From a virus, in the IMG/VR virus record IMGVR_UViG_3300049182_000124: a DNA stretch of 64,000 nt; one strand, 5' to 3'. The notes under the pieces were generated by a model. That model searched no databases and was not told the origin of the DNA. It was given only the letters and a program-made list of their open reading frames with translations. Position numbers and translations under genes: made by a program. Positions 4,509 through 60,302 of this stretch are shown here, one piece after another; positions within the stretch are counted from its first letter, which is position 1, and each line of letters starts with the position of its first letter.

Positions 4509-5377
4509 GCCGAATCCGATCCATCAAGTCCGAGTGGCTCGACGACGAGATGATGGCCATGGCCTCACCGGAGGCGCGCGTGCTGTCGATCGCGCTGATC
4601 CTCCTTGCAGATGATTACGGCAACGGGCGCGCCGGGGCCCCGTTGCTGGCAGGACGTGTGTTCCCCGGCAAGGCGATCGAGACGCTGACCCGTGCCCTGG
4701 ATGAGCTCGTGAGTTTCCGCTACGTGCGCCTCTACGACCTCGACGGACAGCGCTACTTCTCGATCAGGAAATGGTCCGAGCACCAGCGAGTGGACAAGCC
4801 CGGGGCGCCCAAAGTGCCCGGGCCACCCCCACTGCTAATTGTGCAGGATGATTATGGAAACACAATCCCAGAAAAACCTCGCGAGGATTCCGGAGGGTCC
4901 CAAGAAATCCCTCGGGAGATCTCTGCCTCGCGCGCGTCCTCTCCCACTCTCTTCTCTCTATCTGCTCTTCCGGATCAACCTGAGAAGTCTGGATCTGCGC
5001 GGGCGGGCGCGGGCGCGCGAAGCAAACCCCAGGCCAGCGACATGGTGCCGAAGCCACTCGCCGCGGACTGGCAGCCGAGTGCGGCTCAGGTCGAAGCGCT
5101 GGCGGCAAAGTTCTCCGTGCCAGAGGACCGCATCCGAGCGACGGTGCCCGAGTTTCGGGTTTACTGGCGCGAGCAACGCTCAGGGGATCGGAAGACGCTG
5201 CGAGGCTGGTCCCAGGCGTTCGGACACAACATCGACCGCTTAGCCGTGAACAAGACGCTGTTCGTCGGTGTGCCGCCGCAGCAGTCCGGCGGTAGCAACG
5301 ACGCCGACGCTCGCCGCAAGCGCGCCGCCGAAGTCGAAGCTCGCGCCAAGGCCACCAACGGAGGGGCCCGCCCATGA
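4505..5377 (+). CDS. phage replication initiator (N-terminal wHTH, C-terminal DnaT-like domain)
   Basis: SRIRSIKSEW...ADDYGNG...WSEHQRVDKP N-terminus; LAADWQPS...EFRVYW...W C-terminus; directly upstream of DnaB; TTG start overlapping the previous stop. Confidence 0.75.
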   Translation: MSRIRSIKSEWLDDEMMAMASPEARVLSIALILLADDYGNGRAGAPLLAGRVFPGKAIETLTRALDELVSFRYVRLYDLDGQRYFSIRKWSEHQRVDKPGAPKVPGPPPLLIVQDDYGNTIPEKPREDSGGSQEIPREISASRASSPTLFSLSALPDQPEKSGSARAGAGARSKPQASDMVPKPLAADWQPSAAQVEALAAKFSVPEDRIRATVPEFRVYWREQRSGDRKTLRGWSQAFGHNIDRLAVNKTLFVGVPPQQSGGSNDADARRKRAAEVEARAKATNGGARP

Positions 5378-6831
5378 CCGAGGGTCGCATCCCGCCTAGC
5401 GATCTGGACGCCGAGTCGGCTGTGCTCAGCGCCATCATGTTCAAAGCGACCGCGCTCGACGACTGCGAAACCGTGCTCCGTCCGGAGCACTTTTACGCTG
5501 ACGCCAACCGGCGGATCTTCGAAGCCGCACGTGCCTGCGCGGCCACGGGGCGCCCCACGGACATCACGGCCATCACGGGCGCGCTGCGGGACGCGGGCAA
5601 GCTGCAAGCGGTTGGCGGGACCCCGTACCTGGCGGAGATCATCGGGACGCCGTCGGTGGCCAAGGTGGAGCCCTACGCGCGACGTATCGTCGAAAAGTGG
5701 CGCCTGCGGGAGCTCATTCGACACTGTCAGGAGATCGAAGCTGAGGCTTACGCGGACACCGGCGACGTGAACGCTTTCGTGCAAGCTGCCGAGGCACGCA
5801 TCTACGCGGTGGCCGAGCAAAGCGACCGGCCGACGACGCTACATGGTGCGCGAGCGATCATGCAGCAGTGTTTCAACGAGACGAAGGACGCTCGGTACAT
5901 CGGCAAGAACACGGGTGCCTCGACAGGATTTCTCTCGCTCGACAACCGCATCGGTGGCCTCAAGCCAGGGCGCGTGTACGTCGGCGCAGGACGCCCAGGC
6001 ATGGGCAAGACGTCCTTCTTGGCGGCGGCCGCAAAGGCGGTGGCGACATCGAAGAGCGAGGCACGTGGCGTCTACCTAGCGTCGATCGAGATGCCGGCCA
6101 AACAGATCGGCGATCGCTTTATTGCCGTCGAGACTGGCATCGACACGCGGGCGATTGAAAACGGCAAACTCAGCGCGCGACAGTGGGAGCAATACTCGGC
6201 TGCCGTGCAGACCATCGGTGGATGGCCGATGCTCATTGAGGAACAGGGTGGCATCAGTGTGCCGCGTCTGCGGAGCTCGATCCGGCGCGCAGCAAGGGCG
6301 CTCGAGCGGGATCACGGCACCAAGCTCGGTCTCATAGGGGTCGACTATCTGCAGCTCATGAGCGAGGACTCGAGTGGGCGCAACAGCTTCAACGAGAACG
6401 ACCGTCTCACCAAGATCAGCGCGGGGCTCGTGGGTATCGCGAAAGAGTTCAACGTGCCGCTGATTCTGCTCAGCCAGCTAAATCGCGACTGCGAGAAGCG
6501 CCCCGACAAGCGTCCCCAGCTCGGTGACCTGCGCGGCTCAGGCGCCATCGAGCAGGATGCGCACACCATCATCTTCTTTTTCCGCGAGGACATGTACCGG
6601 CCCGCCAAGGAGCAGAAGGATCGCACGGCGGAGTTCATCATCGCTAAGTGCCGCGGCGGCCGCATGGGGACGGTGCGACTTGGTTACCTCGACTACTGCA
6701 CCAAGTTCGTCGACGAGCGCGACGATGATCCTGACGATGAGTACGCGGACCACGCCAACGTGCATGCGGCGCAGGGCTCGCAGCCGCTTCGCGACACCAG
6801 TTACGACTACCTAGACCAGCAAACGCTCTGA
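5374..6831 (+). CDS. dnaB: replicative DNA helicase DnaB
   Basis: GRPGMGKT Walker A, IGVDYLQL, LSQLNRDCEKR, LRGSGAIEQDA. Confidence 0.97.
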   Translation: MTEGRIPPSDLDAESAVLSAIMFKATALDDCETVLRPEHFYADANRRIFEAARACAATGRPTDITAITGALRDAGKLQAVGGTPYLAEIIGTPSVAKVEPYARRIVEKWRLRELIRHCQEIEAEAYADTGDVNAFVQAAEARIYAVAEQSDRPTTLHGARAIMQQCFNETKDARYIGKNTGASTGFLSLDNRIGGLKPGRVYVGAGRPGMGKTSFLAAAAKAVATSKSEARGVYLASIEMPAKQIGDRFIAVETGIDTRAIENGKLSARQWEQYSAAVQTIGGWPMLIEEQGGISVPRLRSSIRRAARALERDHGTKLGLIGVDYLQLMSEDSSGRNSFNENDRLTKISAGLVGIAKEFNVPLILLSQLNRDCEKRPDKRPQLGDLRGSGAIEQDAHTIIFFFREDMYRPAKEQKDRTAEFIIAKCRGGRMGTVRLGYLDYCTKFVDERDDDPDDEYADHANVHAAQGSQPLRDTSYDYLDQQTL

Positions 6832-13963: not shown

Positions 13964-15325
13964 ATGAGTTTTTTCGGACGCCTCAAAGACTTGGTGTCAC
14001 CACCCAAGGTGACGACCACGCGCGTCAACCTGCGTGAGAAGCCGCTCCACGAGCAGTTTCAACGCATCGGCGGCGGCCTGTCGCCAGCCGACGTTTCGCG
14101 CATCTTGCAGCGCGCTGACATGGGGCAGCCGGCCACGCTGATCGATCTCTTCAACGAGGGTCGACAGAAGGACGGCCACCTCCAGGGCATTTGCTACACC
14201 CGCGACATCGCAGTCTCGCTCTGTGGGCTCGAGTTCGTCGACCCCACGCCAGCGAAGGGCAAGGAAAAGCCGGCCCGGAAAGATCAGAAGGCGATCGACC
14301 TGTGCCGCCGCGCGCGGGACAAGTTTGACGACTTCCCGCGGCTGGTCGAGCACCTCACGGGTGCCTACGTGCCAGGGCACGCAACGGCAACGGTGCGGTG
14401 GGAGAAGACGAAAGACGGCCTCTTGCTCCCCGCGGAAGCTGAGCTCCTCAGTCCGCGCGACTTCATCTTCGCGCAGAAGACCGGCAAGCTCCGTTACCAG
14501 CGCGACCCCTTCGATCTCGAAGGCATCGACATCCTGGCCGAGAACCCCGGCCGCGTTGTGCAGGTGCAGCGTCGCATCACCGGCGACGTGCAGGTCCGCG
14601 AGGGCCTGATCCGCTGCCTGGTGTGGGCCGCGCTGTTCCGCAACTGGTCGCTCAAAGACTGGATCGCGCTCGGCGAAATCGGCTGGAAGCCCTGGCGGCT
14701 CGCCTCGTACAAGAAGGGCGCGAGTCAGAAGGACATCGACGAACTCATCGCGATGCTCGAGCGCCTCGGCGCTACCGGTGTCGCGGCGATCCCTGAGACC
14801 ACCGACATCAAGGTCGAGTGGCCCAAGGGCATGGCGCCCGGTACCGGCGGCTCGAGCACGCACCGTGAGCTGCTCGACACCATGGGCCGCGAGATGTCCA
14901 AGGCCGTACTCGGCCAGACGACGTCAGCAGAGCCTGGACCGAACGGTAGCCGCGCCTCGGATGAAGTGCGCGATAAGGTGCGTGCCGACATTCGCGAAGA
15001 AGACGCGATCGCCACCGCCGCAGCGCTCTACAAGCACCTGTTCCGCCTTGTCGTGTCCGTGAACCTTGGCCCTGATGTCGAGTGTCCGGTGCCGTGGTTC
15101 CAGACTGACGAGTCCGTCGATCAGCTCGCGTTCGCGCAAGCCGTGAAGAACCTAGCCGACGCCAAGGTGCGGATCCCCCAGAAGTGGATTCGCGACGAGC
15201 TTGGCGCACCGGAGCCCAAGGAGGGCGAGGAGTGCATCGGTGAGGCTGAGCCTGAGCCGGAGCCCGATGGCGAAGACCCCGAAAAAGACCCTGAAGCGGA
15301 CGACGCAGAAAAAGCCGCTGCCTGA
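13964..15325 (+). CDS. portal protein (Mu gp29/DUF935-like)
   Basis: GLIRCLVW...KDWIALGEIGWKPWRLASY, EMSKAVLGQT; follows TerL. Confidence 0.9.
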   Translation: MSFFGRLKDLVSPPKVTTTRVNLREKPLHEQFQRIGGGLSPADVSRILQRADMGQPATLIDLFNEGRQKDGHLQGICYTRDIAVSLCGLEFVDPTPAKGKEKPARKDQKAIDLCRRARDKFDDFPRLVEHLTGAYVPGHATATVRWEKTKDGLLLPAEAELLSPRDFIFAQKTGKLRYQRDPFDLEGIDILAENPGRVVQVQRRITGDVQVREGLIRCLVWAALFRNWSLKDWIALGEIGWKPWRLASYKKGASQKDIDELIAMLERLGATGVAAIPETTDIKVEWPKGMAPGTGGSSTHRELLDTMGREMSKAVLGQTTSAEPGPNGSRASDEVRDKVRADIREEDAIATAAALYKHLFRLVVSVNLGPDVECPVPWFQTDESVDQLAFAQAVKNLADAKVRIPQKWIRDELGAPEPKEGEECIGEAEPEPEPDGEDPEKDPEADDAEKAAA

Positions 15326-20690: not shown

Positions 20691-21377
20691 ATGCAAGTAC
20701 TCCGAGTTTTCCCGAATCCGTTCGCCGCAACGGATAAGGACGGCGTTCCGTGTGCCGTCTGCCCCCGTGACCCGGACGCCGATGGCGGCGGGCCCGCGTC
20801 GTTTGTCGGCGCGCGCGTTTCGCGTAGCGGCACACAGGTGCTGCAGGACTTCAGCAAGCAGGGGCGTGTCGGGACGCTGAATATCGGCGACTACGAGCTT
20901 CGCAGCCCGATTCAGCGCACCCGGTACGAATACCTGGGCATCCAGTCCACCGATCCGGAGCTTGCGAGGAAGCTCTCCGAGAAGGCCCCGATCGAGCTGC
21001 CGGCGACGAAATACTACAAGGACCGGCTGCGCGAAGGCGCGCTGTTGCCCGCCGATGCAGAGACGGCGCACGTGGCGAAGCTGGCGGGCTTCGTCGATCC
21101 CAAGGTGGTGTTCGCGCGCTACGCACCCGCGCCCGAGTTGCCAGCAACGCCGGGCCTCGATCTGCTCCCGCAGTCGCCCGACGCGCAAGGCAACGTGCTC
21201 GAGGCGCCCGCGCTGCCCGACGGCGCGAGCCGCGGAGCCATCGACCTCCCCGCGGACGGCGAGTTTCGGTCGCTCGATCTCGATGCGCCGCTCGGAGGCC
21301 GTTCAGAAGCCGCTCCGGCTGACACGAGCGCCAAGTCGACCAAGCCCAAGAAGCCGAACCAGGAGTCCGCGAAGTGA
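20691..21377 (+). CDS. hypothetical tail-region protein
   Basis: 228-aa ORF coupled (GTGA) to the sheath gene. Confidence 0.7.
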   Translation: MQVLRVFPNPFAATDKDGVPCAVCPRDPDADGGGPASFVGARVSRSGTQVLQDFSKQGRVGTLNIGDYELRSPIQRTRYEYLGIQSTDPELARKLSEKAPIELPATKYYKDRLREGALLPADAETAHVAKLAGFVDPKVVFARYAPAPELPATPGLDLLPQSPDAQGNVLEAPALPDGASRGAIDLPADGEFRSLDLDAPLGGRSEAAPADTSAKSTKPKKPNQESAK

Positions 21378-23137
21378 CCTTCATCATTCCCGGCTTTACG
21401 CCTGACGACCGCGTCCCCGGTGTCGTTGCTCGCAACGAGTGGGGCGCCGGAAAACAGAGCAGCGGATCCGCTGTGCTGTATTGCGTCCTGTTCGGCAACC
21501 CCGGTGCAAGCGCCCCGATGACACTCGAGCAGCGCTACCCGATCACGACGCCGGAAGAGGTGGACGCGCTCGCTGATGCGCGCTCCGAGCTCGCGCGCAT
21601 GGCCCACGCTGCGCTCGACATCCCGGGTGTCACTTTGATGATCGTCGGAGTCGATGAGGTTACGGGCGGCACCGCCGCTACCTGGACGATCGACTTCGGT
21701 GGCACGTGGACGACGGGCGGCGAGATCGCGCTGCAGCTCGATGAGGAAGTGATCCGCGTGGCGGTCGCGGCCTCCCATACCCCGACCACGTTCGGCGACG
21801 CTTTCGAAGACGCCGTCAACCAGGCCCAAGACGGGCGCTTGTTTTGCACGGCCGTCAATACGGCTGGTCGTGTCGTCCTCACCGTGTACAACGCCGGTGT
21901 TCGCGGCAATCAGCACATCGGCTTCGTCAACACGTCGCTCAAGCCATCGGGCATGACCGTGACGATCGACCAACTCTCCGACGTCGTGAAAGCCGGCTCC
22001 GGCTCCGGCCCAGCGATGACGGCCACCGGTACGGACACTGCCGACCACACGTACGTCCTCACCATCTCGACGGGCGGAGCAAACAGCGGCACCGCGCAGT
22101 ACACGCTCACCGTGGATGGCGGTACGCCCACCGCTCCGGCAACGCTCCCGAGCGGTAACTTCGCCCTGCCGGGACACACGGGCATCACCATGAACGCGCC
22201 CGCCGGCACCTACGTGCTCGCCAACACCTACACGTTCAGCGGCGTAGCGGCGCTCGCGAATGGCGGCGTGCCCTTCATGGGCGGCGCTGGCACCGATGAC
22301 ATCGATGCGGCGCTCGACGCCACGGAGAGCGTCACGAACGACTACATTGGCCTGGCCCACAACGATGCCACGAACCTCGGCAAGGTCGAGACCAAGTGCA
22401 ACGAGAAGGCCGCGTTCGACGTGGGCCGTCTCGAGCAATACATCACCTGCGCTCACCGGGGCCTGACCGCTGCGATCGCGATTGGCCAAACGGCCATGAA
22501 CGACCAACTCGGGCAATGCCTCTGGGTGCAAAACGGCGTCGAGCACCCGAGCCGCGTGGCGGCCCGCATGGCCGCGCTCCGCAGCGTGCTGGAGGCCGCG
22601 CAGCCCAACACCAATTACGATGACATGGTGCTCCCGGGCGCCGCGCCGCAGTTCCGTGACGCCGATGTGCCCAACCGGTCGACGCTCAAGAGCGCGCTCA
22701 ACAACAGCCTGACACCGCTCGTCACCGTGGATGGCGACCTGCAGATCGTTCGCTCGATCTGCTCGCGAAGCCTCAAGGGCGCGACGCCGGACTACCGGAC
22801 GTACGACACCGGTGATGTCTCGGTGCCGATCCGCATCCGCAAGGATTTGGTCGCGCTCGGCCGCGACATGAAGTCGGGCAACCCGTTCGCGGGTCCCGAT
22901 CCCGAGGAGGGCCTGCCGCCGGCGGGGACCTTCACGCCGAACCTGTGGAAGGGCCAGGCCGAGGCGTACATGCGCGAGCGCGCAACCGAACGGTACAACT
23001 GGGTCACCGACGTCGACAGCAATCTCCCTCAGGCCGAGTGGGATCCGGACGCGAAGCGCGTCATGTCGCTCGTCCCGCCCGTCGTCAAACCGCAAAACCA
23101 CCAACTCGGGATCATCGTTCGCCAGACGGCGGCGTGA
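21374..23137 (+). CDS. contractile tail sheath protein (Mu gpL-like)
   Basis: N-terminal DRVPGV, SELARMAHAA, ALNNSLTPL, HQLGIIV C-terminus; 587 aa. Confidence 0.9.
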   Translation: MTFIIPGFTPDDRVPGVVARNEWGAGKQSSGSAVLYCVLFGNPGASAPMTLEQRYPITTPEEVDALADARSELARMAHAALDIPGVTLMIVGVDEVTGGTAATWTIDFGGTWTTGGEIALQLDEEVIRVAVAASHTPTTFGDAFEDAVNQAQDGRLFCTAVNTAGRVVLTVYNAGVRGNQHIGFVNTSLKPSGMTVTIDQLSDVVKAGSGSGPAMTATGTDTADHTYVLTISTGGANSGTAQYTLTVDGGTPTAPATLPSGNFALPGHTGITMNAPAGTYVLANTYTFSGVAALANGGVPFMGGAGTDDIDAALDATESVTNDYIGLAHNDATNLGKVETKCNEKAAFDVGRLEQYITCAHRGLTAAIAIGQTAMNDQLGQCLWVQNGVEHPSRVAARMAALRSVLEAAQPNTNYDDMVLPGAAPQFRDADVPNRSTLKSALNNSLTPLVTVDGDLQIVRSICSRSLKGATPDYRTYDTGDVSVPIRIRKDLVALGRDMKSGNPFAGPDPEEGLPPAGTFTPNLWKGQAEAYMRERATERYNWVTDVDSNLPQAEWDPDAKRVMSLVPPVVKPQNHQLGIIVRQTAA

Positions 23138-23149
23138 GGAACAACGCAG

Positions 23150-23533
23150 ATGGCAAACCCTCGCGTCAAGCCGGGCTCGATCTTCTACGGCACGTCCAAC
23201 AAGCGCATCGGCACCCTTCAGGGCTTCAAGTACACGATCACCAACGGGTCGGGTCAGGAGCTCGCGGACGCCGGCGCCTTCAACACCGACGGCCAGATCA
23301 CGACCAAGCTCCAGGCCGACAACATCTCCCCGCTGCCGGGCTTCGATGCTCCGATGATCGAGGACTTGATCAACCAGCAGAATGCCTCCATCAGCCTCGG
23401 CTACATCGGCGGCAAGATCCACGTGATCGACGACATGCGCCCGGTCGAGGTCGAGGTCTCCGGCGAGGTCGCATCTGGCAAGCAGACGGCCAGCTTCAAT
23501 TGGCAGGGCGGCAAGCCGAAGTTGGTCGGCTGA
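23150..23533 (+). CDS. tail tube protein
   Basis: 127-aa beta-rich ORF directly after the sheath. Confidence 0.8.
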   Translation: MANPRVKPGSIFYGTSNKRIGTLQGFKYTITNGSGQELADAGAFNTDGQITTKLQADNISPLPGFDAPMIEDLINQQNASISLGYIGGKIHVIDDMRPVEVEVSGEVASGKQTASFNWQGGKPKLVG

Positions 23534-23630
23534 GGGTAGCGACAGCATTCCAATAGAAGCGGCGCCGGGAAGGCGTCCATGAAGCTGCGGCGCGCCGCGG
23601 TGGGCTTCGTTCTGACGAGCGAAACGCACC

Positions 23631-24326
23631 ATGGGCAAACTGCAGAACATCATCAAGGGAACGCGCGCCGTGAAGGCCGTGCCGTTCCGCTTGGCTGATG
23701 CCCCGCCCCTCCAGTTCGGCGAGGAGACCGACGAGCACACCATGATGGTGGGCTTGCGCGTGCTCACGCCGGCTGAGATCGGTGACGTTTACGAAAAGGC
23801 GATGGCTGACGCCGCGAAAGCGGGTGTCACCCAATGGCTCGACACGCATCCGCTGTGTCGACTGCACGAGATGATCCACACGGTGGCGCTCGCGGCGGTC
23901 GACGTCGACAGTCCGGATCGTGCCGAGCCTTTTTTCGTTGGCGGCGCCGAAACTGTTCGCACGCACCCTGGCATGTGCGGCGACAACCTCGCTTACCTGT
24001 ACGAGCAACACCGGATCTGGCAGGACGAATGCAGTCCACGCGGACCCGCTAAGACCATCGGCGAACTCGTCGCCATGGTGGCAGAGGAGGCGGCGCGCCC
24101 GGAAAATGCGCCCGACGGCCCTTTCTCGCGATTGCGGCCCAGTGCTCTCAAGAGCTCGCTGCACTCTATATGCGTCCTGCTATCGAGCTCACTCGTGGAC
24201 AAGTTGCAGTCTTCCTCTGGGGGCGGCACGAGTTCCGACAATGGCGGGAGCGAGAGCGAAAGTCCGGTAAGCCCGGCCTCATCGGAGCCATTGGCGACGA
24301 CGACGACCGGTAGCGAGGATCCGTGA
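23631..24326 (+). CDS. tail assembly chaperone G (unshifted product, 231 aa)
   Basis: Between tube and tape measure; VGLRVL...LYEQH...ECSP; Ser-rich, rare-codon tail after the slip site. Confidence 0.8.
   Translation: MGKLQNIIKGTRAVKAVPFRLADAPPLQFGEETDEHTMMVGLRVLTPAEIGDVYEKAMADAAKAGVTQWLDTHPLCRLHEMIHTVALAAVDVDSPDRAEPFFVGGAETVRTHPGMCGDNLAYLYEQHRIWQDECSPRGPAKTIGELVAMVAEEAARPENAPDGPFSRLRPSALKSSLHSICVLLSSSLVDKLQSSSGGGTSSDNGGSESESPVSPASSEPLATTTTGSEDP
24119..24313 (+). CDS. -1 programmed frameshift site and GT extension (C-CCT-TTC; FLAIAAQCSQELAALY...DDDDR*)
   Basis: X-XXY-YYZ heptamer 24119-24125 in phase with frame 0; -1 frame open for 63 codons to TAG 24311-24313. Confidence 0.8.
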   Translation, partial: PFLAIAAQCSQELAALYMRPAIELTRGQVAVFLWGRHEFRQWRERERKSGKPGLIGAIGDDDDR

Positions 24327-24922
24327 CGACGTTCGAGAGAGCTGTCGCCAAGGCGCGAGCACCCGGGGCGACGCTTGTCCTTCAGCCCTGGTGCTTTGCC
24401 GACGAGTGGTCGAAAAAGCCAACGACTCCGGTCTGCGTGGGGCTGCGTCTGCTCGCCGACAGCGAAAAGACCAAGGCGAGGCTCACGGCCGAGGAGCTTG
24501 CCGACCAGGTGCATCCGCAACGCGGGCCGAATTGGATCGACAGCTTCAACGACGCCCTGATTCGTCAGGTGGTGGCGCTCGCGCTCTGTGACCCCAATGA
24601 CGTCAAGAAACCATTCGACCTGATGCCCTTCCCCGAGTCGGACGTCAGCGATGCCTTCACGTCGCGCGGCGCCGCGCTCGTGTTCGAAGCCATCGACAGC
24701 TACGAAATCAACTCGAGCCCCATCGGAATTGCCGCCGATCGTCCGGAACTCGACAAGCTCGCTCACCTCGTCAGGCTCGTCGACCCGAAAAGACTGCCGA
24801 TGCCATTGCGGCGCATGATCGGGCACGTTGTTGGTGAGCTCGATCAGCTCGTGGATGAAGATTCAGTGGACGCCGCCGGCATCAACGACACGGGCAACGA
24901 AGTCGCTCCCGTCGTCAGTTAG
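24323..24922 (+). CDS. second tail assembly chaperone-like protein (paralog of 23631)
   Basis: VGLRLL / W.D / VVALALCD..PF / LVFE...SSP align with the upstream chaperone. Confidence 0.7.
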   Translation: MTTFERAVAKARAPGATLVLQPWCFADEWSKKPTTPVCVGLRLLADSEKTKARLTAEELADQVHPQRGPNWIDSFNDALIRQVVALALCDPNDVKKPFDLMPFPESDVSDAFTSRGAALVFEAIDSYEINSSPIGIAADRPELDKLAHLVRLVDPKRLPMPLRRMIGHVVGELDQLVDEDSVDAAGINDTGNEVAPVVS

Positions 24923-25396
24923 CAGAGTCTCGTCGGCAACCTGCTCGGGTCGAGTCAGGTCGATGTAGAGCAGGCAGGAGCTCACGTCGAAGCCGAGCGC
25001 ACGGGCTCGCTCGTGCAGCACAGCGAACTTGGCGCGACCATCGGTGAGCAGCGATCGCAAGTGCAGCTCGTCAGCGTGGAGCAGCACCAACTCGGCCCGC
25101 GCCTCCTGCAACTGACCCTCCATGCGGCCGCAGATCCTGGCCACGTCCGCAGCGAGCTCCGGATCGCGGAGCGCTGCTGGTGCCGCCGACCGCATCTCCC
25201 AGACACGTGAGTCGCGCTCCAGGCGCTCAATGCGCTGCTCGAGCAGGACGGCGCGCGAGACCACCGTCCGGAAGCGGGCGGCCTTGTCGTTGAGCTGCTC
25301 GGCCAGCCGCTGCAGGTAGCGCGCCACCTCTGGCTCGACCGGTCTGCGGGGCTCGTAGCCCAGGCGCGCCAGTAGTCGTTTCAGCACTCCCCCCAC
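24863..25396 (-). CDS. PspA/IM30 (ESCRT-III superfamily)-like coiled-coil protein, C-terminally truncated, antisense moron
   Basis: GGAGG-6nt-GTG; GC3-rich; MGGVLKRL, EPE, LEQRIE-x8-W, ELA, ELVLL, ERARAL spaced as in PspA helices 0-2. Confidence 0.75.
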   Translation of the reverse strand: MGGVLKRLLARLGYEPRRPVEPEVARYLQRLAEQLNDKAARFRTVVSRAVLLEQRIERLERDSRVWEMRSAAPAALRDPELAADVARICGRMEGQLQEARAELVLLHADELHLRSLLTDGRAKFAVLHERARALGFDVSSCLLYIDLTRPEQVADETLLTDDGSDFVARVVDAGGVH

Positions 25397-25416
25397 CGTA
25401 AGCCTCCCCCGGACCC

Positions 25417-27645
25417 GTGGCCAGCCCCATCCGCATCAGAATCGGCGCCAGCCTCGAGGCCAGCGTGGATAGGGCCTTCCAGTCCGCCGTCCAGAAGGCT
25501 GGGCAGGCCGAAAAGGCCATGCAGCGCCAGAAGCGAGAAACTGCCAGCGTTGCCGACCAAGAGGCGAAGCGCCAGCTCAAGGCACAGGAGCGGCTCAACA
25601 AGGTCGCCGAGACCCTCGACCGGCAGCGCTCCCGCGGTCTCTTCCAGCAGTACCGGGCCCAAGAGGCGGCGGCCGAGCGCGCTGCCAAGGTCCAAGAGCG
25701 CGCCACGGCGCGCGCTCACGCTGCCGAGCGGCGGGAGATCGACAAGACGTGGCGGGCGCTCGAACGCTCGCTCTCACAGGCACAGCGCAAGCGCGAGGCG
25801 GCAGACCGCCAGGCACAGCGGGTCTCGGCTCGCCAAGGGGAGAGCTTCGCGCGCCGCACCAGCCACCGCGCCAGCCGCTTTCTGATGCCGGAGGCGCCGC
25901 TCGGCCCGATGGCGCTGCGCGCGCTCGGTGGCGTTGCGCAGGGCGCGGGTATCGACTTCAGCATCGCCGGCGCCGTCGGACGCGTCGTCGACCTCGAGCA
26001 GACCGCCCAAGACCTCAGCAACTCAGGCTACCAGGCAGGAGCCACGGGAGCGAACGGAAAGCGCGTCGATCCCCGCGAACTCGTGGCCCAAGCGCGCTCA
26101 GTGGCCGGCACCTACGGCATGGACGCCGGGGACGTGATCGGTGGCCTCGTCCAGTACCAGAAGATCGCGGGCGACCTCGAGACGGGCCGTCAGAACCTCG
26201 CCCAGATGGCCGCTCTGGCCAAGGCGACGGGCACCAACCTGACCGACATGGCTGCGGCTACTGCCAACGTCTCGAACGGCCTGGGCGAAATCCCGAACAA
26301 GGCCGAGGCAATCGACTCGGTCATGCGCACCATCGCCGGGCAAGGCAAGCTCGGCGCCGTCGAGATCTCCGACATGGCGACGCACATGGCGCGCATCGCG
26401 GCCGCAGCGTCCAACTTCAGTGGCGACCGCGCGTCGAATATCTCGACGTTCGGTGCGCTGGCGCAGATCGCTAGAGCCGAGGGCGGAGCACCGAGCGCCG
26501 CGGAGGCGGCCCGCTCGATGGGCGGCTTCGCCAACACGTTCAAGAAGAGCGCACGCAACAAGGAGTTCCAGGCGATCGTCGGCAAGAGCGCCTTCACGGA
26601 CAAGAGCAATCAGTTCCTGCGCGGCCCGCTCGATCTCATCAAGGATGCTCTGCTCGCCACCAAGGGCGACCAGATCAAGATGAACAAGATCTTCATGGAC
26701 GTCGTCGGCGCCCGCACGATCACGGGTCTCACCAAGACGTTCACGGGCGCCGGCGGTGGCGCTGGCGGTATTGCAGCCGTCGACAAGCAACTCGAGCGCA
26801 TGCTCAAGGCGCAGATGTCGAAGGACGAGGTCAAGGACTCGGCCGCTCGCGCTGCTGCCACCACCAAATCGCGCGCGGCCCGCTTCCAGAACGCCTGGGA
26901 CAGCGTGGCCGACCAGACGATGTCTGAGCTACTGCCCTCCCTCGAGGACGCGAGCGACGGGATTCTCAAGTTCGCTAAGGTCGCGGGCGCTGTGGCGACT
27001 TGGATGGTCCAGAACCCCAAGTCCGCAATCGCCGGCGCCATCAGTGTTTCCATCGCGCGCGCCGGACTCGAGTCCGCTTTCCGGGCTGGCATTGAGCGCG
27101 TCATTCTTGGAGCCAACAACTCACGCGCTAGCAACGTGGGAAACATCGCCAGCGCTCTCGGCGGGGCCTTTACGATCGCCTCGATCGCAGCGTCCGTCAT
27201 TACGGTGGCGCAACTCTACGCCGAGAAGATGTACGACCAGTCCGGCAAGGACTTCTCGGAGGGCATCGACAAGTCCGCGCGCGCCGACGACCTAACCAAG
27301 CAGATCCAGCAAGCGATGGCCGCTGGCGACATGGCCAAGGCCGAAAAGCTTGCTGAAAAGCAGGTGCAGCTGCGCAAGGAGGGCGCGCAGAAGGTCGCCG
27401 ACAGTGAGAATTTCACCGGCATCGACAAGTACCTCGACCAGATGGCGCGCGGCGCGCTCGTCACCTTCGGGCAAGGCGACGTCGTGCGCAATTCTGACAA
27501 GGCCGTGGCCGAGCAGTTGCGACAGAACATCGTCGAGCTCCAAAACTCCAAGGCACTACTGGCCGAGATCAGGGACGCAATCCGTGAGTCCAAGCCGCCT
27601 GTTGGTGACGGAGCTGCACCTGGTGACGGGCGCGGGTCGCAGTAG
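25417..27645 (+). CDS. tail tape measure protein
   Basis: 742-aa Ala-rich helical ORF with TMP-like core (GKLGAVEISDMA); synteny. Confidence 0.9.
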   Translation: MASPIRIRIGASLEASVDRAFQSAVQKAGQAEKAMQRQKRETASVADQEAKRQLKAQERLNKVAETLDRQRSRGLFQQYRAQEAAAERAAKVQERATARAHAAERREIDKTWRALERSLSQAQRKREAADRQAQRVSARQGESFARRTSHRASRFLMPEAPLGPMALRALGGVAQGAGIDFSIAGAVGRVVDLEQTAQDLSNSGYQAGATGANGKRVDPRELVAQARSVAGTYGMDAGDVIGGLVQYQKIAGDLETGRQNLAQMAALAKATGTNLTDMAAATANVSNGLGEIPNKAEAIDSVMRTIAGQGKLGAVEISDMATHMARIAAAASNFSGDRASNISTFGALAQIARAEGGAPSAAEAARSMGGFANTFKKSARNKEFQAIVGKSAFTDKSNQFLRGPLDLIKDALLATKGDQIKMNKIFMDVVGARTITGLTKTFTGAGGGAGGIAAVDKQLERMLKAQMSKDEVKDSAARAAATTKSRAARFQNAWDSVADQTMSELLPSLEDASDGILKFAKVAGAVATWMVQNPKSAIAGAISVSIARAGLESAFRAGIERVILGANNSRASNVGNIASALGGAFTIASIAASVITVAQLYAEKMYDQSGKDFSEGIDKSARADDLTKQIQQAMAAGDMAKAEKLAEKQVQLRKEGAQKVADSENFTGIDKYLDQMARGALVTFGQGDVVRNSDKAVAEQLRQNIVELQNSKALLAEIRDAIRESKPPVGDGAAPGDGRGSQ

Positions 27646-27647
27646 TC

Positions 27648-28559
27648 ATGCCCGCCTTCGATAGCGCACAGCGCGCGAGCTTCAATGGGATCGCCTTCCC
27701 GGTGAAGACCATCTCGATCAAGGGCAAATATCGGCACGCCGACCACGAGTATCTGCGCGTGCCCGGCGCCGTCATCGAGAAGCTCGAGCGCTCCGTCTAC
27801 AGCATCGAGATGCAGGCGGTGTTCGACACGAACATCCGCGGCTACGGGCAGCTCTGGCCTAACGGCGTCCAGGCGCTGCGCGCGCTGTACGAAGCCGGTA
27901 CGACCGGGCCGCTCGTGGTGCCCACCATCGGAACACTGCCGGCCTTTCAGCCCGACTGGGACCAGAACATTGAGATCGCTAAGGTCCGCTCAGGCGAGAC
28001 CATCAAGCTGAGCTTCAAAGAGGATCAGACCCAGAAGTTTCTGCAGCTCGCGCTTGTCCAGACACAGCAGCAGTCGCTGGCCACGACGACGGGCAACCTC
28101 GCGACGGTGCTGGCGAGCCTGAATCCTCCACCTGAGGATCAGTCGCTATTCGATGGCATCGTGAGCAGCGCGAACAGCATTTTGGCCATCAAAGATCAGG
28201 CGGATCTTTACGGTGGACTGCTGTCCGTGAAGCTGCAGACGCTAACTTCGTTGTTCGACCAAGCCGATAAGCAGCTCGAATCACTGAAGGACCCCGCGAA
28301 CTTCGAAGCGCTCGATGCGTTCCTCGAGATGTGGAACGCGGCCGTCAGGATGGCCACGAATCTTGCCGATAGCCCACGCGGCCCGCGCTCGTACACGACG
28401 CCGCGACAGATGAGCGTCTCGGACATCGCGACCGCCATCTACGGGAGCAGCGAACGGGCCCCCGAAATCATGATGAACAACCGGTTTTCTGACCCGTTTG
28501 CCGTGCCAGCGGGTGAAAAAGTCATCTATTTCGAGGACGCGGGCCTGCTCGCGGCGTGA
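27648..28559 (+). CDS. Mu gpN/DNA-circularisation-like tail tube initiator with C-terminal LysM/tail-X-like motif
   Basis: RASFNGIAFPV N-terminus; SVSDIATAIYG...IMMNN..DPFAVPAG C-terminus. Confidence 0.85.
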   Translation: MPAFDSAQRASFNGIAFPVKTISIKGKYRHADHEYLRVPGAVIEKLERSVYSIEMQAVFDTNIRGYGQLWPNGVQALRALYEAGTTGPLVVPTIGTLPAFQPDWDQNIEIAKVRSGETIKLSFKEDQTQKFLQLALVQTQQQSLATTTGNLATVLASLNPPPEDQSLFDGIVSSANSILAIKDQADLYGGLLSVKLQTLTSLFDQADKQLESLKDPANFEALDAFLEMWNAAVRMATNLADSPRGPRSYTTPRQMSVSDIATAIYGSSERAPEIMMNNRFSDPFAVPAGEKVIYFEDAGLLAA

Positions 28560-28562
28560 TCC

Positions 28563-30002
28563 GTGGGGCACGCCGTCAACGAGGACCGATTCCGTCTGGT
28601 GGTCGACGGGAAGGACTGCCCGATCGCCTCGCGGTACAGCGCAGCCGCGGGCGTCTTCGATGTCCCATCGCAGTTCGACATGCAGGTCGGCCACAACGGC
28701 CTGCTGACGGAGCTGCTGCACAACTATTGCGAGTTCACGCCCTTCGAGCTGTACGTCAACGATGTGCAGGTCATGGTGGGCGACATCGACGAGCTCACGG
28801 GAGCCGGCGGCGATGGCACGGAGCTCAAGATCGATGGTCGCGACCGGCTCAAGTACATCGTCGACTGCGAAGTCGAAAACGACGAAGAGGTCAAGGACGT
28901 CACCTTTGCCGAGCTGACCGAGCTAGCGATGAAGCGCGTCGGTCTCGGCGACGTCTCGCTCGTCAGCGACAACTTGGCCAACCGGAAGGCCATCACCGGA
29001 AAGTTCAAAATCACCGAAACGGTGAAGCCAAACACCGAGGAGACCGACAGCGAGATCGCTCAGACCGTCGAGACTCGCACGCGCCTGGTGCACAAATCGC
29101 TCGAGCTCGAGGCAGGCTCGACCTGGTGGGACATCCTTATCCCGCAATACCGGCGCGGCGGGTTGTTCCTGTGGGCCGACGTTTTCGGCGGCTTCGTGCT
29201 GGCGCAACCGAACGGCAAGCAGTCGCCGCTTGGTCGGGTCCTTCGTCGCCGGAGTGGAAACGGTGAGTCCGGTGAGGTCACGATCCTGGGACAGCCGGAC
29301 TTCATGCGGTCGGCGAAGCCGCGCTACACCGCCGTACAGGTGCTCGGTCGCAAGGGATCAGGCGCCGACGGTCGCGGTACCGCCAAGAGCAAGCGCCTCG
29401 ACCAAGAGATGATCGCGCTGCTGAACCCGCTCGAGGCGGACCGCGCGAACGGTGGCAAGCGGCAGAAGGTCAAAACCTACCGGGACGACAAGGTCAAGAC
29501 GCCAGAGCAGGCAGACTTCTTGGCACTCCGGCAGCTGGCCGACAGCCGCCGCAATGGCTTCCGCCTCGTGTACACCGTCTCGGGACACACGTTTCAGTCG
29601 ATCACTGGCAGCGGTCGCCTCGTCTGGCAACCCGACACGGTGATGCATGTCGTTGACGACGAGCTTGGGATCGATGGGCCGATGTACGTCGACGACTGCA
29701 AATACTCGAAAGACGTCCGTGGCCGCACGCAGACGCGCGTGAGTCTGATGCGTTGCGAAGACCTGATCTTCGGCGAAGAAGACCTCCTCAACCCACCGCG
29801 CACGGCGAGCAAAAGGGGCCTCGTGCGGATCGGACGCACCGAAGTGTTCCGGCCCCAATGGGTCAAGGATCCGAACTGGGGCGGACTCCCGACACTGCGC
29901 GGCGTGCACCTCGACGACGATCCCAGCTTTTCAAATCGAGGGCAGGTTCCAACCGGAGGCACGGGCTTCGTGGTGGACAAGGGCCTTCGCAGGCGTCAGT
30001 GA
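28563..30002 (+). CDS. baseplate hub (Mu gp44/P-like)
   Basis: IDGRD, YTVSGH, VWQPDTVMHVVDDELGIDGPMYV. Confidence 0.85.
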   Translation: MGHAVNEDRFRLVVDGKDCPIASRYSAAAGVFDVPSQFDMQVGHNGLLTELLHNYCEFTPFELYVNDVQVMVGDIDELTGAGGDGTELKIDGRDRLKYIVDCEVENDEEVKDVTFAELTELAMKRVGLGDVSLVSDNLANRKAITGKFKITETVKPNTEETDSEIAQTVETRTRLVHKSLELEAGSTWWDILIPQYRRGGLFLWADVFGGFVLAQPNGKQSPLGRVLRRRSGNGESGEVTILGQPDFMRSAKPRYTAVQVLGRKGSGADGRGTAKSKRLDQEMIALLNPLEADRANGGKRQKVKTYRDDKVKTPEQADFLALRQLADSRRNGFRLVYTVSGHTFQSITGSGRLVWQPDTVMHVVDDELGIDGPMYVDDCKYSKDVRGRTQTRVSLMRCEDLIFGEEDLLNPPRTASKRGLVRIGRTEVFRPQWVKDPNWGGLPTLRGVHLDDDPSFSNRGQVPTGGTGFVVDKGLRRRQ

Positions 30003-44895: not shown

Positions 44896-45650
44896 TCGCC
44901 AGGTACCTCCCCGACAAGCTCACGCCGCTCACGCCAGCGCAAGCAATCGTGGCGCTTCGCAGGGCGTACGAGGCTGTTGAGGGAGAGCGCCCGTCGCCGG
45001 ATTGTCTCGCGATCCACACGGCACAGAGTGCACTTGAGGCGGCCCGGTGGAAGTCGCTGCACAACTTCTGCTTCACGAATGCCAAGGCGAGCGCGAGCTA
45101 TCCAGGGCTCTTCTCTTGCTACAAGTGCAACGAGAAGCTGAAGGATGGGTGGCACTGGTACGTGCCGGAGGGTGAGCTCGTCGGTGGCTTCGGTACAGCG
45201 CTGAAAGGAGCGCCGCTTCCAGTGCCCGACGGTCACCCACAGACGCGCTTCCGTGCCTTCACCAACATCAACGCGGGCGCTCTTGACCACATGCAGCTCG
45301 TGAGGCGTAAGTGGCCCGAAGCGTGGACGGCCGCGCGTGGCGGTGACGTTGCGGGATTCGTCCACGGTCTCAAGATGCGCAACTTCTTCACCGCCGATGA
45401 GGCTCCTTATCTCAAGGGTGTGGCCAGCTTGATGCGCGAGTTCCTGCCACTGGTGAACCAGTCGAGCGCGACGCCGCCTGAGCCGCCCCCAGACGACGAG
45501 CAGACGCGCTGCGAGGCGCTTGCGTGCGTCGCACCGGATCCGGATCGGTATCTCCACACCGAGGCAGTAATCGCCAGCATGAACAGCATGGGTGGCGTGT
45601 GGGATGCTATCCGCAACGAACGAAACGCCGCGATGCGTGAGCCTGACTGA
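44892..45650 (+). CDS. endolysin, GH73 glucosaminidase/FlgJ-like
   Basis: AQSALE (catalytic Glu), FRAF, FVHGLK...FFTAD..Y. Confidence 0.8.
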   Translation: MIARYLPDKLTPLTPAQAIVALRRAYEAVEGERPSPDCLAIHTAQSALEAARWKSLHNFCFTNAKASASYPGLFSCYKCNEKLKDGWHWYVPEGELVGGFGTALKGAPLPVPDGHPQTRFRAFTNINAGALDHMQLVRRKWPEAWTAARGGDVAGFVHGLKMRNFFTADEAPYLKGVASLMREFLPLVNQSSATPPEPPPDDEQTRCEALACVAPDPDRYLHTEAVIASMNSMGGVWDAIRNERNAAMREPD

Positions 45651-45696
45651 GCAGCTTCGAAAACTCCTGATTCTTGCATCGGCGGGGGCCAATCCA

Positions 45697-46653
45697 ATGA
45701 CCCCCATGAGCGCACTGGCTCTCGCCACCTACACCCGCCCACGCTTGCGACTGATCATGCCCGAAGACACCGACCGCGTGACTCCCACTGATATCGCTCC
45801 GCCGCCCAGCGTGGACGAAGTTCCAATCACGCAGCCGCCGGGCAAGCTGGAGACGATGCTGCCAGCGCGCACGCCGAGCGACTTCAAGGAGGTCGCGGTC
45901 AACGATGTCCTTGCTGCGCAGCGCCAACTCCAGCGGGGGCTCGACGACTTGCTTGGACCCGGCGGGAGACTCGAGGCCCAGACCGCAGCCATCGCCGCCG
46001 TTGTCGACAACGCGGCCGCCAAGTGGGACGGAACCTACCGGCTACTTGCCGGCGAGATGCAAACGTTTCGCCAGCAGGTTGAGGCCAAAGACCGCGAGCA
46101 AGACACCAAGCTCGAGCGCGTCATGAGCGAGCTGGTGGCGTTGCGAGCGCGCGTCGAGGTGCTTGAGCGCGAACGCGGAGGCGGACGCGAGCTCAGCGAG
46201 GTTAAGTCGCTGCTCACGGCGCTGTTCCTACGCATGGAGATGCAGGAGGCCAACGGGGCGCCCGCCAAGGCGACGCTTTCGGGTCGCGTGATCCTCGTCG
46301 TCGAAAACGAGGACTTACTCGTCCGTACGCTCAAGCGCGTCCTGGTCAGCCGTGGCGCTCAGGTACTCACCGCGCGCAACTTCGACGAGGTCCGCACCGA
46401 GCTCAGCTCCTCGGCAACCGACTGCGTGCTACTCGACATCCGACTCGAGGCCGACGACGGGATGGAGATCGCCAAGTGGTTGATCGCTCAGCGCGCACTG
46501 CCCAAGGAGAGGATATTGCTCCTGACCGGGCACGCCAACCCCGAGCACCAGGCGGCGGCCAAGCGACTCGGGCTCGTGGTCCTCGAGAAGCCGATCGCTG
46601 CCGCGGATTTGGTTGCCGCGATCCTGTCGAGCATCGAGACTCCCTCCAACTAA
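45697..46653 (+). CDS. coiled-coil + C-terminal response-regulator receiver (REC) protein; start uncertain (45697-45757)
   Basis: VILVVENE, VLLDIRL (phospho-Asp), GMEIA, LLTGH, EKPI: complete REC fold motifs at ~46285-46650. Confidence 0.85.
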   Translation: MTPMSALALATYTRPRLRLIMPEDTDRVTPTDIAPPPSVDEVPITQPPGKLETMLPARTPSDFKEVAVNDVLAAQRQLQRGLDDLLGPGGRLEAQTAAIAAVVDNAAAKWDGTYRLLAGEMQTFRQQVEAKDREQDTKLERVMSELVALRARVEVLERERGGGRELSEVKSLLTALFLRMEMQEANGAPAKATLSGRVILVVENEDLLVRTLKRVLVSRGAQVLTARNFDEVRTELSSSATDCVLLDIRLEADDGMEIAKWLIAQRALPKERILLLTGHANPEHQAAAKRLGLVVLEKPIAAADLVAAILSSIETPSN

Positions 46654-60284: not shown

Positions 60285-60302
60285 TGTGGGATCTCCCTTT
60301 GG

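Follow-up and report, generated by a model that had tools for sequence, protein, structure and literature searches.

In PspA of Escherichia coli (PF04012), an amphipathic helix at the N-terminus leads through a (D/E)P linker into a pair of long antiparallel helices; its fragment 1-144, crystallised as 4whe, binds PspF. The hairpin core is common to Vipp1/IM30 and to ESCRT-III proteins (CHMP3, CdvB2), in which C-terminal helices build rings and tubes. In the tail genes of phages, the original paper on HK97 gp15 reportedly describes a membrane protein that is missing from most close relatives. This moron is located between the frameshifted tail chaperone and the tape-measure gene (TMP). The titles cited as references 27 and 28 of PMC10884400 connect gp15 with superinfection exclusion and TMP-dependent genome injection, and Tab of JBD26 demonstrates that a small phage protein can target the TMP (PMC10884400). 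Full-length PspA genes occur in huge phages and IMG/VR genomes, where they have been proposed to manage host membrane stress; the proteins are 200-300 aa long, pass PF04012, are encoded beside membrane-associated genes, and have a patchy distribution (bioRxiv 10.64898/2026.10.24.761521).

Here, we describe gene X, found in the window (the whole 64,000-nucleotide stretch of viral DNA analysed, IMG/VR record IMGVR_UViG_3300049182_000124). Like E. coli PspA, the X protein is predicted to begin with an amphipathic helix that a (D/E)P linker joins to a long antiparallel hairpin, and the tip motif W-E-x-K/R...A...G-D-x-x-L-A has identical spacing in both. Unlike E. coli PspA, with which it shares 13-19% identity, X has a helix 0 of about half the length, carries an acidic tail in place of α4 and α5, and is phage-encoded, antisense within a tail module. 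X also has the hairpin core of Vipp1/IM30 and ESCRT-III without the C-terminal helices that build their rings and tubes. Compared with the full-length phage PspAs, X is shorter (174-177 aa), scores below the profile threshold, lies among tail genes, and occurs throughout its clade. A sequence-only reading of this DNA, made before our analysis, knew of no description of a phage-borne mini-PspA; full-length phage PspA is already on record (bioRxiv 10.64898/2026.10.24.761521).

X shares its slot with HK97 gp15, but gp15 is 62 aa long, is encoded on the same strand as its neighbours, is followed by a terminator, and is unrelated to X in both sequence and fold. Short PspA_IM30-like bacterial proteins in the ESM-Atlas (143-191 aa) resemble X in length and are its nearest neighbours in language-model features, with scores of 0.92-0.94 that reflect feature likeness alone. 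The top cluster (181 aa, PspA_IM30-bearing) scored 0.94 and shared 199 of 256 features. Unlike X, these clusters are cellular (Bacillota, Cyanobacteriota, and Gemmatimonadota), and some carry PF27865 CHP04376 or PF27863.

Gene X is real and lies antisense within the tail module

Gene X is the sole minus-strand gene in the head-tail module, which extends from ~11.8 to 35.4 kb, and the only open frame of the ~495-bp gap from the second tail-chaperone gene to the TMP gene. The features of the locus are as follows:

24323..24922, plus strand: second chaperone-slot gene, 199 aa, convergent with X; 3' ends overlap by 60 nt
24863..25396, minus strand: gene X, coding sequence of 177 aa plus stop, GTG start (ORF call)
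24923..25416, plus strand: untranslated stretch of the tail-operon strand, ~495 nt, 2-4 stops in each plus frame
25403..25407, minus strand: Shine-Dalgarno sequence GGAGG of gene X, 6 nt before the GTG at 25396
25417..27645, plus strand: tape-measure gene (TMP), 742 aa, divergent from X; start codons 20 bp apart

This arrangement agrees with the sequence-only reading, which placed X between chaperone and tape measure, the putative chaperone label of the upstream gene being taken from synteny only. The TMP gene was identified by PF10145 (E = 9.5e-6; 26.1 bits, below the 33.2-bit cutoff) and by phrog_28. A second GTG at 25387 gives a 174-aa form of X, which is preferred by most gene callers and by the homologues.

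The minus frame of X is open over 190 codons, and the plus-strand frames of the gap (24923-25416) run to 95 codons at most. The GC content of X by codon position (0.79/0.44/0.82) is gene-like, with a GC3 similar to that of neighbouring genes. The codon-for-codon antisense frame has a GC pattern that is just as gene-like; therefore, composition alone is not decisive. Across six loci, the minus-frame codon positions 1/2/3 accumulated 826/689/1451 substitutions, and each pair differed by 37-62 codon changes that were purely synonymous. In all six loci, the shadow frame of the plus strand contained 1-3 stops, at different places. Gene X is genuine and under purifying selection, and the third-position substitutions and the opposite-strand stops are decisive. 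The ORF, the Shine-Dalgarno sequence, and the codon-position pattern all bear out the earlier description of a well-formed minus-strand gene with GGAGG 6 nt before a GTG.

The alternative that X is no gene, but a shadow ORF held open by high GC opposite a real plus-strand feature, can draw on the tendency of the antisense frame of a GC-rich gene to stay open and on the gene-like GC of the plus frame. It is effectively refuted by the gathering of substitutions at position 3 of the minus frame and by the plus-frame stops, which vary in position and are present in six of six loci. Conservation of the X protein among homologues with as little as 25% identity also speaks against it; their indels keep the reading frame, and the C-terminal His never varies.

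Transcriptional context of gene X

X is convergent with the chaperone-slot gene and divergent from the TMP gene; thus, the late tail transcript cannot yield X, and a late transcript running over the gap would be antisense to X mRNA. Among relatives, the overlap of X with the chaperone-slot gene ranges from 4 to 186 nt. With the start codons of X and TMP 20 bp apart, any X promoter must lie inside the TMP coding sequence. No consistent signal for a sigma70-like promoter was detected in the window, whose host is GC-rich, and nine relatives, and a scan of the same sequences found no minus-strand terminator for X. The single terminator-like match is on the plus strand, and the number of such matches equals the chance expectation. 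The antisense orientation of X implies that, midway through the tail genes, transcription is interrupted or there is some antisense interplay.

X is a fixed gene of an uncultured soil phage clade

We recovered ~50 homologues of X with 25-74% identity, all from metagenomes or MAGs; X-bearing relatives were reached via a neighbouring baseplate-region gene. X occupied the same antisense slot in 12 of 12 distinct related tail modules and was still in that slot in modules with X identity as low as 34%. Among these 12 distinct modules, none without X was found. The identity of X declines in step with that of the sheath, tube, chaperones, and TMP. As none of these modules lacks it and its divergence tracks that of the adjacent genes, X belongs to the fixed gene set of the clade and is not a moron of sporadic occurrence. 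A moron would be present in some genomes and absent from close relatives, with the flanking genes adjacent, an arrangement not seen for X, so the label "moron" given to it from the sequence does not hold. Whatever the function of X, it is unusual for one antisense gene to be kept at the same tail-operon junction across relatives with 25-35% identity.

The carriers of X are an uncultured soil phage clade with Mu-type head and tail genes. Pattern scans for X in GTDB genomes and IMG/VR gave no match, and GenBank phages contained neither X nor a homologue of the 303-aa gene downstream of TMP. In GenBank phages, the window sheath protein matched only those of Ralstonia and Yersinia phages, with ~33% identity over 30% of its length. 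X had no match in PHROGs, PADLOC, or NCBIfam. One MAG (G001) carries two X-bearing tail modules. Members of the clade are carried by the MAGs GCA_040383985.1 and "Proteobacteria bacterium OH_SBlB_69", whose taxa are candidate hosts. The universal presence of X and its co-divergence with the tail genes would be as consistent with a function in the tail as with one at the membrane.

X is predicted to form a hairpin with a short amphipathic helix and an acidic tail

The AlphaFold 2 (AF2) model of X has a pLDDT of 86, with helices at residues 2-11, 23-70, and 79-133 and a non-helical tail. The latter two helices, which have a pLDDT above 90, form an antiparallel hairpin of 48 + 55 residues. The predicted protein features, all encoded on the minus strand, are as follows:

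25364..25393, minus strand: residues 2-11, helix 0, predicted short cationic amphipathic helix
25187..25330, minus strand: residues 23-70, hairpin helix 1, with the invariant W66 at its end
25139..25201, minus strand: residues 66-86, hairpin tip, PspA-type W-E-x-R...A...(G)D-x-x-L-A...A
24998..25162, minus strand: residues 79-133, hairpin helix 2, with conserved GRxEGQL, E102, E110, and R114
24866..24997, minus strand: residues 134-177, family-specific tail, acidic with a net charge of -7, modelled as non-helical

Helix 0 has a median hydrophobic moment of 0.69 and a charge of +2 to +4 in the X family and is followed by the Pro-rich linker YEPRRPVEPE. This modelled helix matches the N-terminal amphipathic, membrane-binding α0 of PspA, although it is shorter, and may likewise bind membranes. 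Sequence analysis identified no hydrophobic or transmembrane segment in X. The tip (residues 66-86) aligns without gaps to residues 71-91 of E. coli PspA. The sequence-only reading had X stop after the hairpin; α4 and α5 are indeed absent, but that reading missed the conserved 44-residue acidic tail (residues 134-177) that stands in their place. The tail does not align to PspA and contains the conserved motifs G-x-DVS-x-C-LL-x-IDL-x-x-P and, at the C-terminus, DD-x-x-(D/E)FVAR(V/I)ID-x-x-x-x-H.

Profile comparisons suggest remote kinship with PspA/IM30

When compared with PF04012 (PspA_IM30; gathering cutoff 33.9 bits), window X scored 15.0 bits (E = 0.019), below the cutoff. In a six-frame PF04012 scan of MAG G001, its X homologues (23.3 and 22.2 bits) ranked right behind the two true PspAs (178 and 97 bits); an SMC-like coiled coil in this MAG scored 21 bits, near the X homologues. 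The sequence-only reading had named the lack of a PspA_IM30 profile hit as grounds for rejecting its proposal, and by the Pfam cutoff such a hit is formally lacking, with scores of 15-23 bits against 33.9. Within the X family, PF04012 matched 22 of 37 and 7 of 19 members, and its best E-value (2.9e-5) is the best of any Pfam match. The ANG-1 coiled-coil model matched 24 of 37 members, making ANG-1 and PspA_IM30 the two commonest Pfam matches, and the CENP-F, Nuf2, and DivIC models matched similar numbers.

HMMER profiles of the family searched against PDB sequences (E ≤ 10) returned miscellaneous coiled coils and no PspA or Vipp1. A search of 1.84 billion representatives (E ≤ 1e-3) likewise yielded no PspA or Vipp1; of the 16 clusters returned, 15 belong to the X family and the last is a 667-aa protein (E = 2.2e-4). 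An E. coli PspA-seeded search retrieved near-identical enterobacterial PspAs only, which are of no use for profile building.

Profile-profile alignment using hhalign gave higher values, with a probability that varied from 0.6% to 89% depending on the sequences chosen. All 50 X members against 25 PspAs yielded 78% (E = 1.7e-5, 112 columns), and 13 distant X members alone yielded 89.5% (E = 2e-6, 116 columns from residue 1). The probability was 33% with close X members only, 9% against 17 canonical PspAs alone, and 0.6% for the X family against the single E. coli PspA. These values come from comparisons among chosen PspA, coiled-coil, and shuffled profiles. Reversed profiles scored 13-16 and natural coiled coils 16-17, both with probabilities below 1%. 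Block shuffles scored at most 29.1 with 7- and 14-column blocks and up to 34.9 with 21-column blocks, which can leave the tip motif intact.

The most conserved columns of X coincide with those of PspA. The alignment is gap-free at the hairpin tip and superposes the signature of PspA (DP; W-E-x-K/R; A; G-D; L-A) on X. The motif spacing given in the sequence-only reading was reproduced by the profile-profile alignment: EP21-22 corresponds to DP24-25 of PspA, W66 to W71, and L81-A82 to L86-A87, the LA pair placed at W+15 in that reading (W+15/16). The earlier proposal of a PspA-like identity is upheld in part, with hhalign probabilities of 78-89% and superposed signature residues on one side and sub-threshold Pfam and HMMER results on the other. 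X is probably a PspA/ESCRT-III superfamily member that has diverged very far and been remodelled at its C-terminus.

Structural similarity extends beyond PspA

PspA 1-144 (4whe_A) aligned to the X model with a Z-score of 11.0 and an rmsd of 2.7 Å over 116 residues. Foldseek searches with the X model placed Vipp1/PspA in the top rows of the PDB results, and 6 of the top 30 AFDB clusters were named PspA; no E-value in either database was below 0.02. The top-ranked structures were 7o3w, 7o3x, 9eom, 8qhx, 7zcg, 2gd5, and 9s99, and for Vipp1/IM30 and ESCRT-III all E-values exceeded 0.04, with TM-scores of 0.3-0.5. IpaB, p85 iSH2, CT398, FliJ, and many others match the hairpin of X equally well, and structure-only searches (VIA wide, ESM-Atlas shape, and BFVD) retrieved generic hairpins and did not discriminate. 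Since many unrelated hairpins score the same, the long antiparallel hairpin is not specific to PspA. A complex prediction for an X homologue and the PspA of MAG G001 had a score of 0.08, which gives no answer either way.

Searches for PspF and lysogeny genes

We examined three pspA loci in genomes of the phylum of MAG G001. All three had a co-directional CesT_Tir_1/YbjN-like gene upstream of pspA, and a divergent pspF was not seen at any of them. We found no tyrosine integrase in two related IMG/VR records, no CI-like repressor among 10 early-region ORFs, and no Pfam match in positions 1-447 of the window, which were included in the lysogeny check. The sequencing runs listed were of soil and rhizosphere DNA, with no RNA run among them. 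Two ideas put forward from the sequence, silencing of PspF or another sigma54 activator and expression in lysogens, thus gain no support: a CesT/YbjN-like gene takes the place upstream of pspA where pspF was sought, and the integrase and repressor searches were negative.

Alternative explanations and a proposed role for X

X could be a generic antiparallel coiled-coil hairpin with no PspA ancestry, a convergent tip motif, and a clade-specific role. All sequence-to-profile scores lie below threshold, ANG-1, CENP-F, Nuf2, and DivIC models match similar numbers of members, unrelated hairpins reach equal Z in structure searches, and the hhalign probability swings with the sequences used. However, a generic hairpin would not readily account for the control profiles, in which reversed sequences and natural coiled coils stayed below 1% and short-block shuffles scored at most 29, or for the gap-free tip and the coincidence of the top conserved columns in both families. 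The language-model feature search, which makes no use of this alignment, also points to PspA_IM30-bearing clusters. We regard a generic hairpin as possible, though on the doubtful side.

Another explanation is that X serves the tail module, as an assembly timer, a Tab- or anti-Tab-like blocker, or a gp15-like exclusion protein directed at the TMP; its position beside the TMP gene would come from interacting partners being inherited together. No related module lacks X, its divergence follows that of the tail genes, its slot between frameshifted chaperone and TMP is exactly that of HK97 gp15, and Tab of JBD26 provides a precedent for a small phage protein that targets the TMP (PMC10884400). Nevertheless, X lies on the opposite strand and so does not share a transcript with the tail genes, searches of PHROGs and PADLOC gave no match to it, and no sequence feature ties it to the TMP. 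Both gp15 and Tab are unrelated to X in size and sequence and are encoded on the same strand as their neighbours. A tail-module function thus seems distinctly unlikely. Less probable by far is that the hairpin mimics PspA(1-144) and binds a PspF-like sigma54 activator of the host, silencing the envelope-stress response in lysogens. X does resemble PspA 1-144 at the hairpin level, but its helix 0 is far shorter than that of PspA, the three pspA loci lack a divergent pspF, and lysogeny genes were not found in the searches made.

The reading that we prefer, and to which we give about an even chance as a whole, is that X is a diverged PspA/ESCRT-III member, fixed in its clade in antisense orientation, made on a separate schedule, and acting at the membrane. 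X is a real, conserved, and syntenic gene whose product has a hairpin fold and profile-level similarity to PspA; we infer the timing of its expression, its membrane binding, its partners, and its biological role. X would be made off the late schedule, in the early phase of infection or by a resident prophage; such a schedule is suggested because X is unreadable from the late tail transcript and because late transcription is antisense to it. The protein may then act on the inner side of the cytoplasmic membrane, either by itself or by adding to host PspA assemblies or capping them. Its likely purpose would be to keep the membrane sealed or guarded, for example against TMP-mediated entry by a superinfecting phage. 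We consider it unlikely that X is a minimal ESCRT-III/PspA-type protein (helix 0, hairpin, and a new acidic tail), expressed while the tail operon is silent, that caps or hijacks the host PspA polymer or seals the inner membrane against penetration by the TMP. If it is, the phage would own a membrane-remodelling module with which to exclude superinfecting phages or to maintain the energy state of the infected cell.

Should both the PspA kinship and the membrane role prove true, X would be the smallest natural protein of the PspA/ESCRT-III type linked with a virus and a natural experiment on a hairpin plus helix 0 without the polymerisation helices. The phage would then have a membrane-stress module of its own within an operon of structural genes. 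In current phage annotation pipelines, X would be called just a "hypothetical protein."

Head-tail module around an antisense gene

The window (64.9% G+C) carries a co-directional, plus-strand head-tail module that spans ~11.8 to 35.4 kb. Gene X, which encodes 177 amino acids, is the sole minus-strand gene within it.

Genes of the head-tail module (window coordinates, strand, feature)
in the module, +, Mu-type portal (PF06074, 206 bits)
21374-23137, +, sheath
23150-23533, +, tube
23631-24326, +, first chaperone-slot gene
24323-24922, +, second chaperone-slot gene
24863-25396, -, X
25417-27645, +, tape-measure protein, TMP (PF10145, 26.1 bits, under the 33.2-bit cutoff; phrog_28)
downstream of TMP, +, 303-aa gene
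in the module, +, GpP-like baseplate protein gene

Mu-type morphogenesis genes (Portal_Mu, 206 bits, and the GpP-like baseplate gene) coexist with a DnaB helicase, a RecT/YqaJ pair and Dam-type methylases (window 13964-15325, 5374-6831, 59448-61559 and 54885-55541). The ORFs scanned in the window included no transposase, suggesting that the phage is non-transposing and that its virion module is Mu-like.

X is a real gene under selection

The second chaperone gene and TMP are separated by a 495-bp gap. Open stretches in its plus-strand frames all end within 95 codons, whereas a single minus-strand frame stays open over 190. X starts with GTG at 25396, 6 nt after GGAGG; an alternative GTG at 25387 gives a 174-aa form, the one used by most gene calls and homologues. 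The G+C content of codon positions 1/2/3 is 0.79/0.44/0.82. The plus frame lying codon for codon antisense to X, the same frame as that used by the upstream chaperone gene, is equally gene-like, so composition cannot arbitrate between a gene and a shadow ORF.

A word-indexed search retrieved 37 homologues with 51-74% identity; further members, with identities as low as ~25%, came from a full HMMER scan against 1.84 billion representatives. When six loci were aligned by codon, differences fell 826/689/1451 on minus-frame positions 1/2/3, and each pair of loci showed 37-62 codon changes that were purely synonymous. The plus-strand shadow frame is interrupted by 1-3 stops in each of the six loci, at differing positions. 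This substitution pattern, together with the plus-frame stops, rules out a GC-rich shadow ORF. Indels among homologues keep the frame, W66 is invariant (50/50 sequences), and nearly all members end in (V/I/L)H. Collectively, the comparative data indicate that X is a real gene, as the sequence-only reading had proposed from the ORF.

X is a fixed gene of an uncultured phage clade

Every X member is of soil or rhizosphere origin, from metagenomes or MAGs. X lay between TMP and the second chaperone-slot gene, in antisense orientation, in 12 of 12 distinct loci recovered: the window; L001, L002, L003, L004, L006/7, L008, L009/10 and L011; L013 and L014, two contigs of the MAG 'Proteobacteria bacterium OH_SBlB_69'; and L049/50, two IMG/VR records. 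No relative lacking X was found among the related modules recovered. Identity to the window copy drops from 66% to 34%, in parallel with the sheath, tube, chaperone, TMP and baseplate genes.

GenBank phages contain no homologue of X and no detectable homologue of the 303-aa gene, and the sheath protein matched only Ralstonia and Yersinia phages there, with ~33% identity over 30% of its length. Since the 303-aa gene is unmatched and the sheath weakly matched, the entire tail module (window 21374-30002) is that of a clade without a cultured representative. X, present in all loci, co-diverging with its neighbors and absent from GenBank phages, is therefore a fixed signature gene of this clade. 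The proposal that X is a moron fails on this universality. The gp15 moron of HK97 occupies the same chaperone/TMP slot; however, gp15 is on the strand of its neighbors and has a terminator, whereas X is antisense.

Two extra genes were observed in L004 (MAG GCA_040383985.1; 14714-15847 and 1659-2246). An IS605 OrfB/TnpB-like gene with a Cas12f-like TNB domain interrupts the run of head-tail genes, and an HNH endonuclease is encoded beyond the baseplate genes, downstream of them and on the other strand.

Predicted architecture of X

An AlphaFold2 model built on the 37-sequence alignment (mean pLDDT 86, pTM 0.71) starts with a helix (residues 2-11) and a Pro-rich linker, followed by an antiparallel hairpin of helices 23-70 and 79-133 with pLDDT above 90. 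The first helix (helix 0) is amphipathic and cationic (family median hydrophobic moment 0.69, charge +2 to +4), and X has no transmembrane segment. X had been described as stopping after the hairpin, which overlooked a conserved C-terminal tail of 44 residues. This tail is non-helical in the model, with 134-150 still confidently placed, has a net charge of -7, and contains the family's most strongly conserved motifs, G-x-DVS-x-C-LL-x-IDL-x-x-P and DD-x-x-(D/E)FVAR(V/I)ID. The acidic FVARVID tail may resemble the C-terminal motifs of ESCRT-III proteins.

Relationship of X to PspA

By curated criteria, X is not a member of the PspA family. PF04012 (PspA_IM30) scores 15 bits for the window X and 22-23 bits for its homologues in G001, a MAG with two X-bearing tail modules, against a cutoff of 33.9 bits; an SMC-like coiled coil of G001 reaches 21 bits. 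NCBIfam gave no match. Neither PspA nor Vipp1 was among the hits of X-family HMMER profiles, whether these were run against PDB sequences (E<=10) or against the 1.84 billion representatives (E<=1e-3). Other coiled-coil Pfam models match comparable numbers of members, with ANG-1 (24/37) slightly ahead of PF04012 (22/37 and 7/19); PF04012 has the best E-value of all Pfam matches across members. In a six-frame scan of the 5.8 Mb of G001, the X homologues rank right behind two true PspAs.

We compared profiles by hhalign, using 24 PspAs from genomes of the G001 phylum plus E. coli PspA. The 50-member X family aligned with these 25 PspAs at 78% probability (E 1.7e-5, 112 columns). Restricting the family to its 13 most divergent members gave 89.5% (E 2e-6, 116 columns from residue 1 of both), and close members only gave 33%. 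Real comparisons scored 41-47 versus 13-16 for reversed profiles. Column shuffles in 1-, 7- or 14-column blocks reached at most 29.1, and 21-column shuffles, in which the tip motif may survive intact, up to ~35; the N- and C-terminal coiled coils of TMP and that of the window REC protein scored 16.6-17.4, all below 1% probability. The alignment is gapless over the hairpin tip, and in it the best-conserved columns of both families coincide (X = PspA: E21-P22 = D24-P25; W66 = W71; E67 = E72; R69 = K74; 73 (A/V) = A78; 77 (G) = G82; L81 = L86; A82 = A87). An X homologue and a PspA from the same MAG read HWEARLQRARAFGDDELMVAAA and EWEKRAMLAVRAGDDNLAREAL, respectively.

The top Foldseek (3Di+AA) rows were Vipp1 and PspA in PDB and 'PspA/IM30 family protein' in AFDB, none with an E-value <0.02. 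The crystal structure of E. coli PspA 1-144 (4whe) superposes on the model over 116 residues (Z 11.0, rmsd 2.7 A). In an ESM-Atlas feature search, X adjoins a 181-aa cluster (score 0.94, 199/256 features common) whose only common family is PF04012. By structure alone, the hairpin fits PspA no better than it fits IpaB, p85 iSH2, CT398, HP0958, FliJ and many others, and the polymerisation helices alpha4/alpha5 of PspA are absent from X. The claimed likeness of the hairpin to PspA is probable, although the Pfam cutoff is missed, and we lean toward distant homology of the two proteins. The sequence-only interpretation is partly supported: X is a real gene, and its hairpin is probably PspA-like.

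A phage-borne PspA as such is not new, since full-length PspA has been reported from huge phages and 667 IMG/VR genomes (bioRxiv 10.64898/2026.10.24.761521). The truncated, antisense form embedded in a tail module was not found in the literature searched.

Expression layout and possible role of X

X and the second chaperone-slot gene converge, and their 3' ends overlap by 60 nt in the window (24863-24922) and by 4-186 nt in relatives (L001 6334-6519; also L003, L006, L008 and L011). Continuation of the chaperone ORF into the open shadow frame of X looks fortuitous, and the C-terminus called for the chaperone is thus unlikely to be conserved protein. TMP and X diverge from each other, their start codons being 20 bp apart in the window and 2-95 bp apart in relatives. 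The spacer (window 25397-25416, and equivalents in L001, L002 and L004) contains a conserved element that reads CTTACGG on the X strand and CCGTAAG on the TMP strand. In the window, its TAA (25399-25401) is a stop in the TMP frame, 15 nt before the GTG of TMP. A Shine-Dalgarno sequence was not recognisable before the TMP start, and scans of the window and relatives recognised no promoter or terminator for X. Searches of sequencing runs gave soil and rhizosphere DNA, and no RNA run with the sequence.

Given this arrangement, X would not be translatable from the late tail transcript, and its promoter would have to sit within the TMP coding region. The late chaperone-to-TMP transcript would cross ~495 untranslated nt antisense to X mRNA; expression of X and of the tail operon is therefore likely separated in time or mutually antagonistic. 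Because of the cationic amphipathic helix and PspA-type hairpin, the most economical function for X would be that of a peripheral inner-membrane protein. Acting by itself, or by joining or capping assemblies of host PspA, it may stabilise or protect the membrane, either in a lysogen or at an early stage of infection. Its acidic FVARVID tail could bind a partner or X itself.

The mechanism and lifestyle first suggested for X are unsupported. As to PspF/sigma54 silencing, no divergent pspF was seen in three pspA loci from the G001 phylum (L015, L021 and L027, from G001, G026 and G005); a co-directional CesT_Tir_1/YbjN-like gene precedes pspA in each. With regard to lysogeny, Pfam gave no match in window 1-447, a tyrosine integrase is absent from two related IMG/VR records, and no CI-like repressor occurs among ten early-region ORFs, which gave Dam, RecT, YqaJ-type and DnaB-type functions.

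Five genomes of the same phylum (G007, G014, G020, G026 and G032) have a second ORF 4-10 kb from pspA, on the opposite strand, that matches PspA at 53-58 bits and only over ~1-145 (28-144 in one). Judged by sequence, these ORFs are cellular hairpin-only PspA paralogues.

Elsewhere in the window, the ~230 N-terminal residues of the gene at 45592-46653 matched no family, and residues 234-344 matched Pfam Response_reg (59 bits), confirming the receiver domain that had been read beside the lysis genes.
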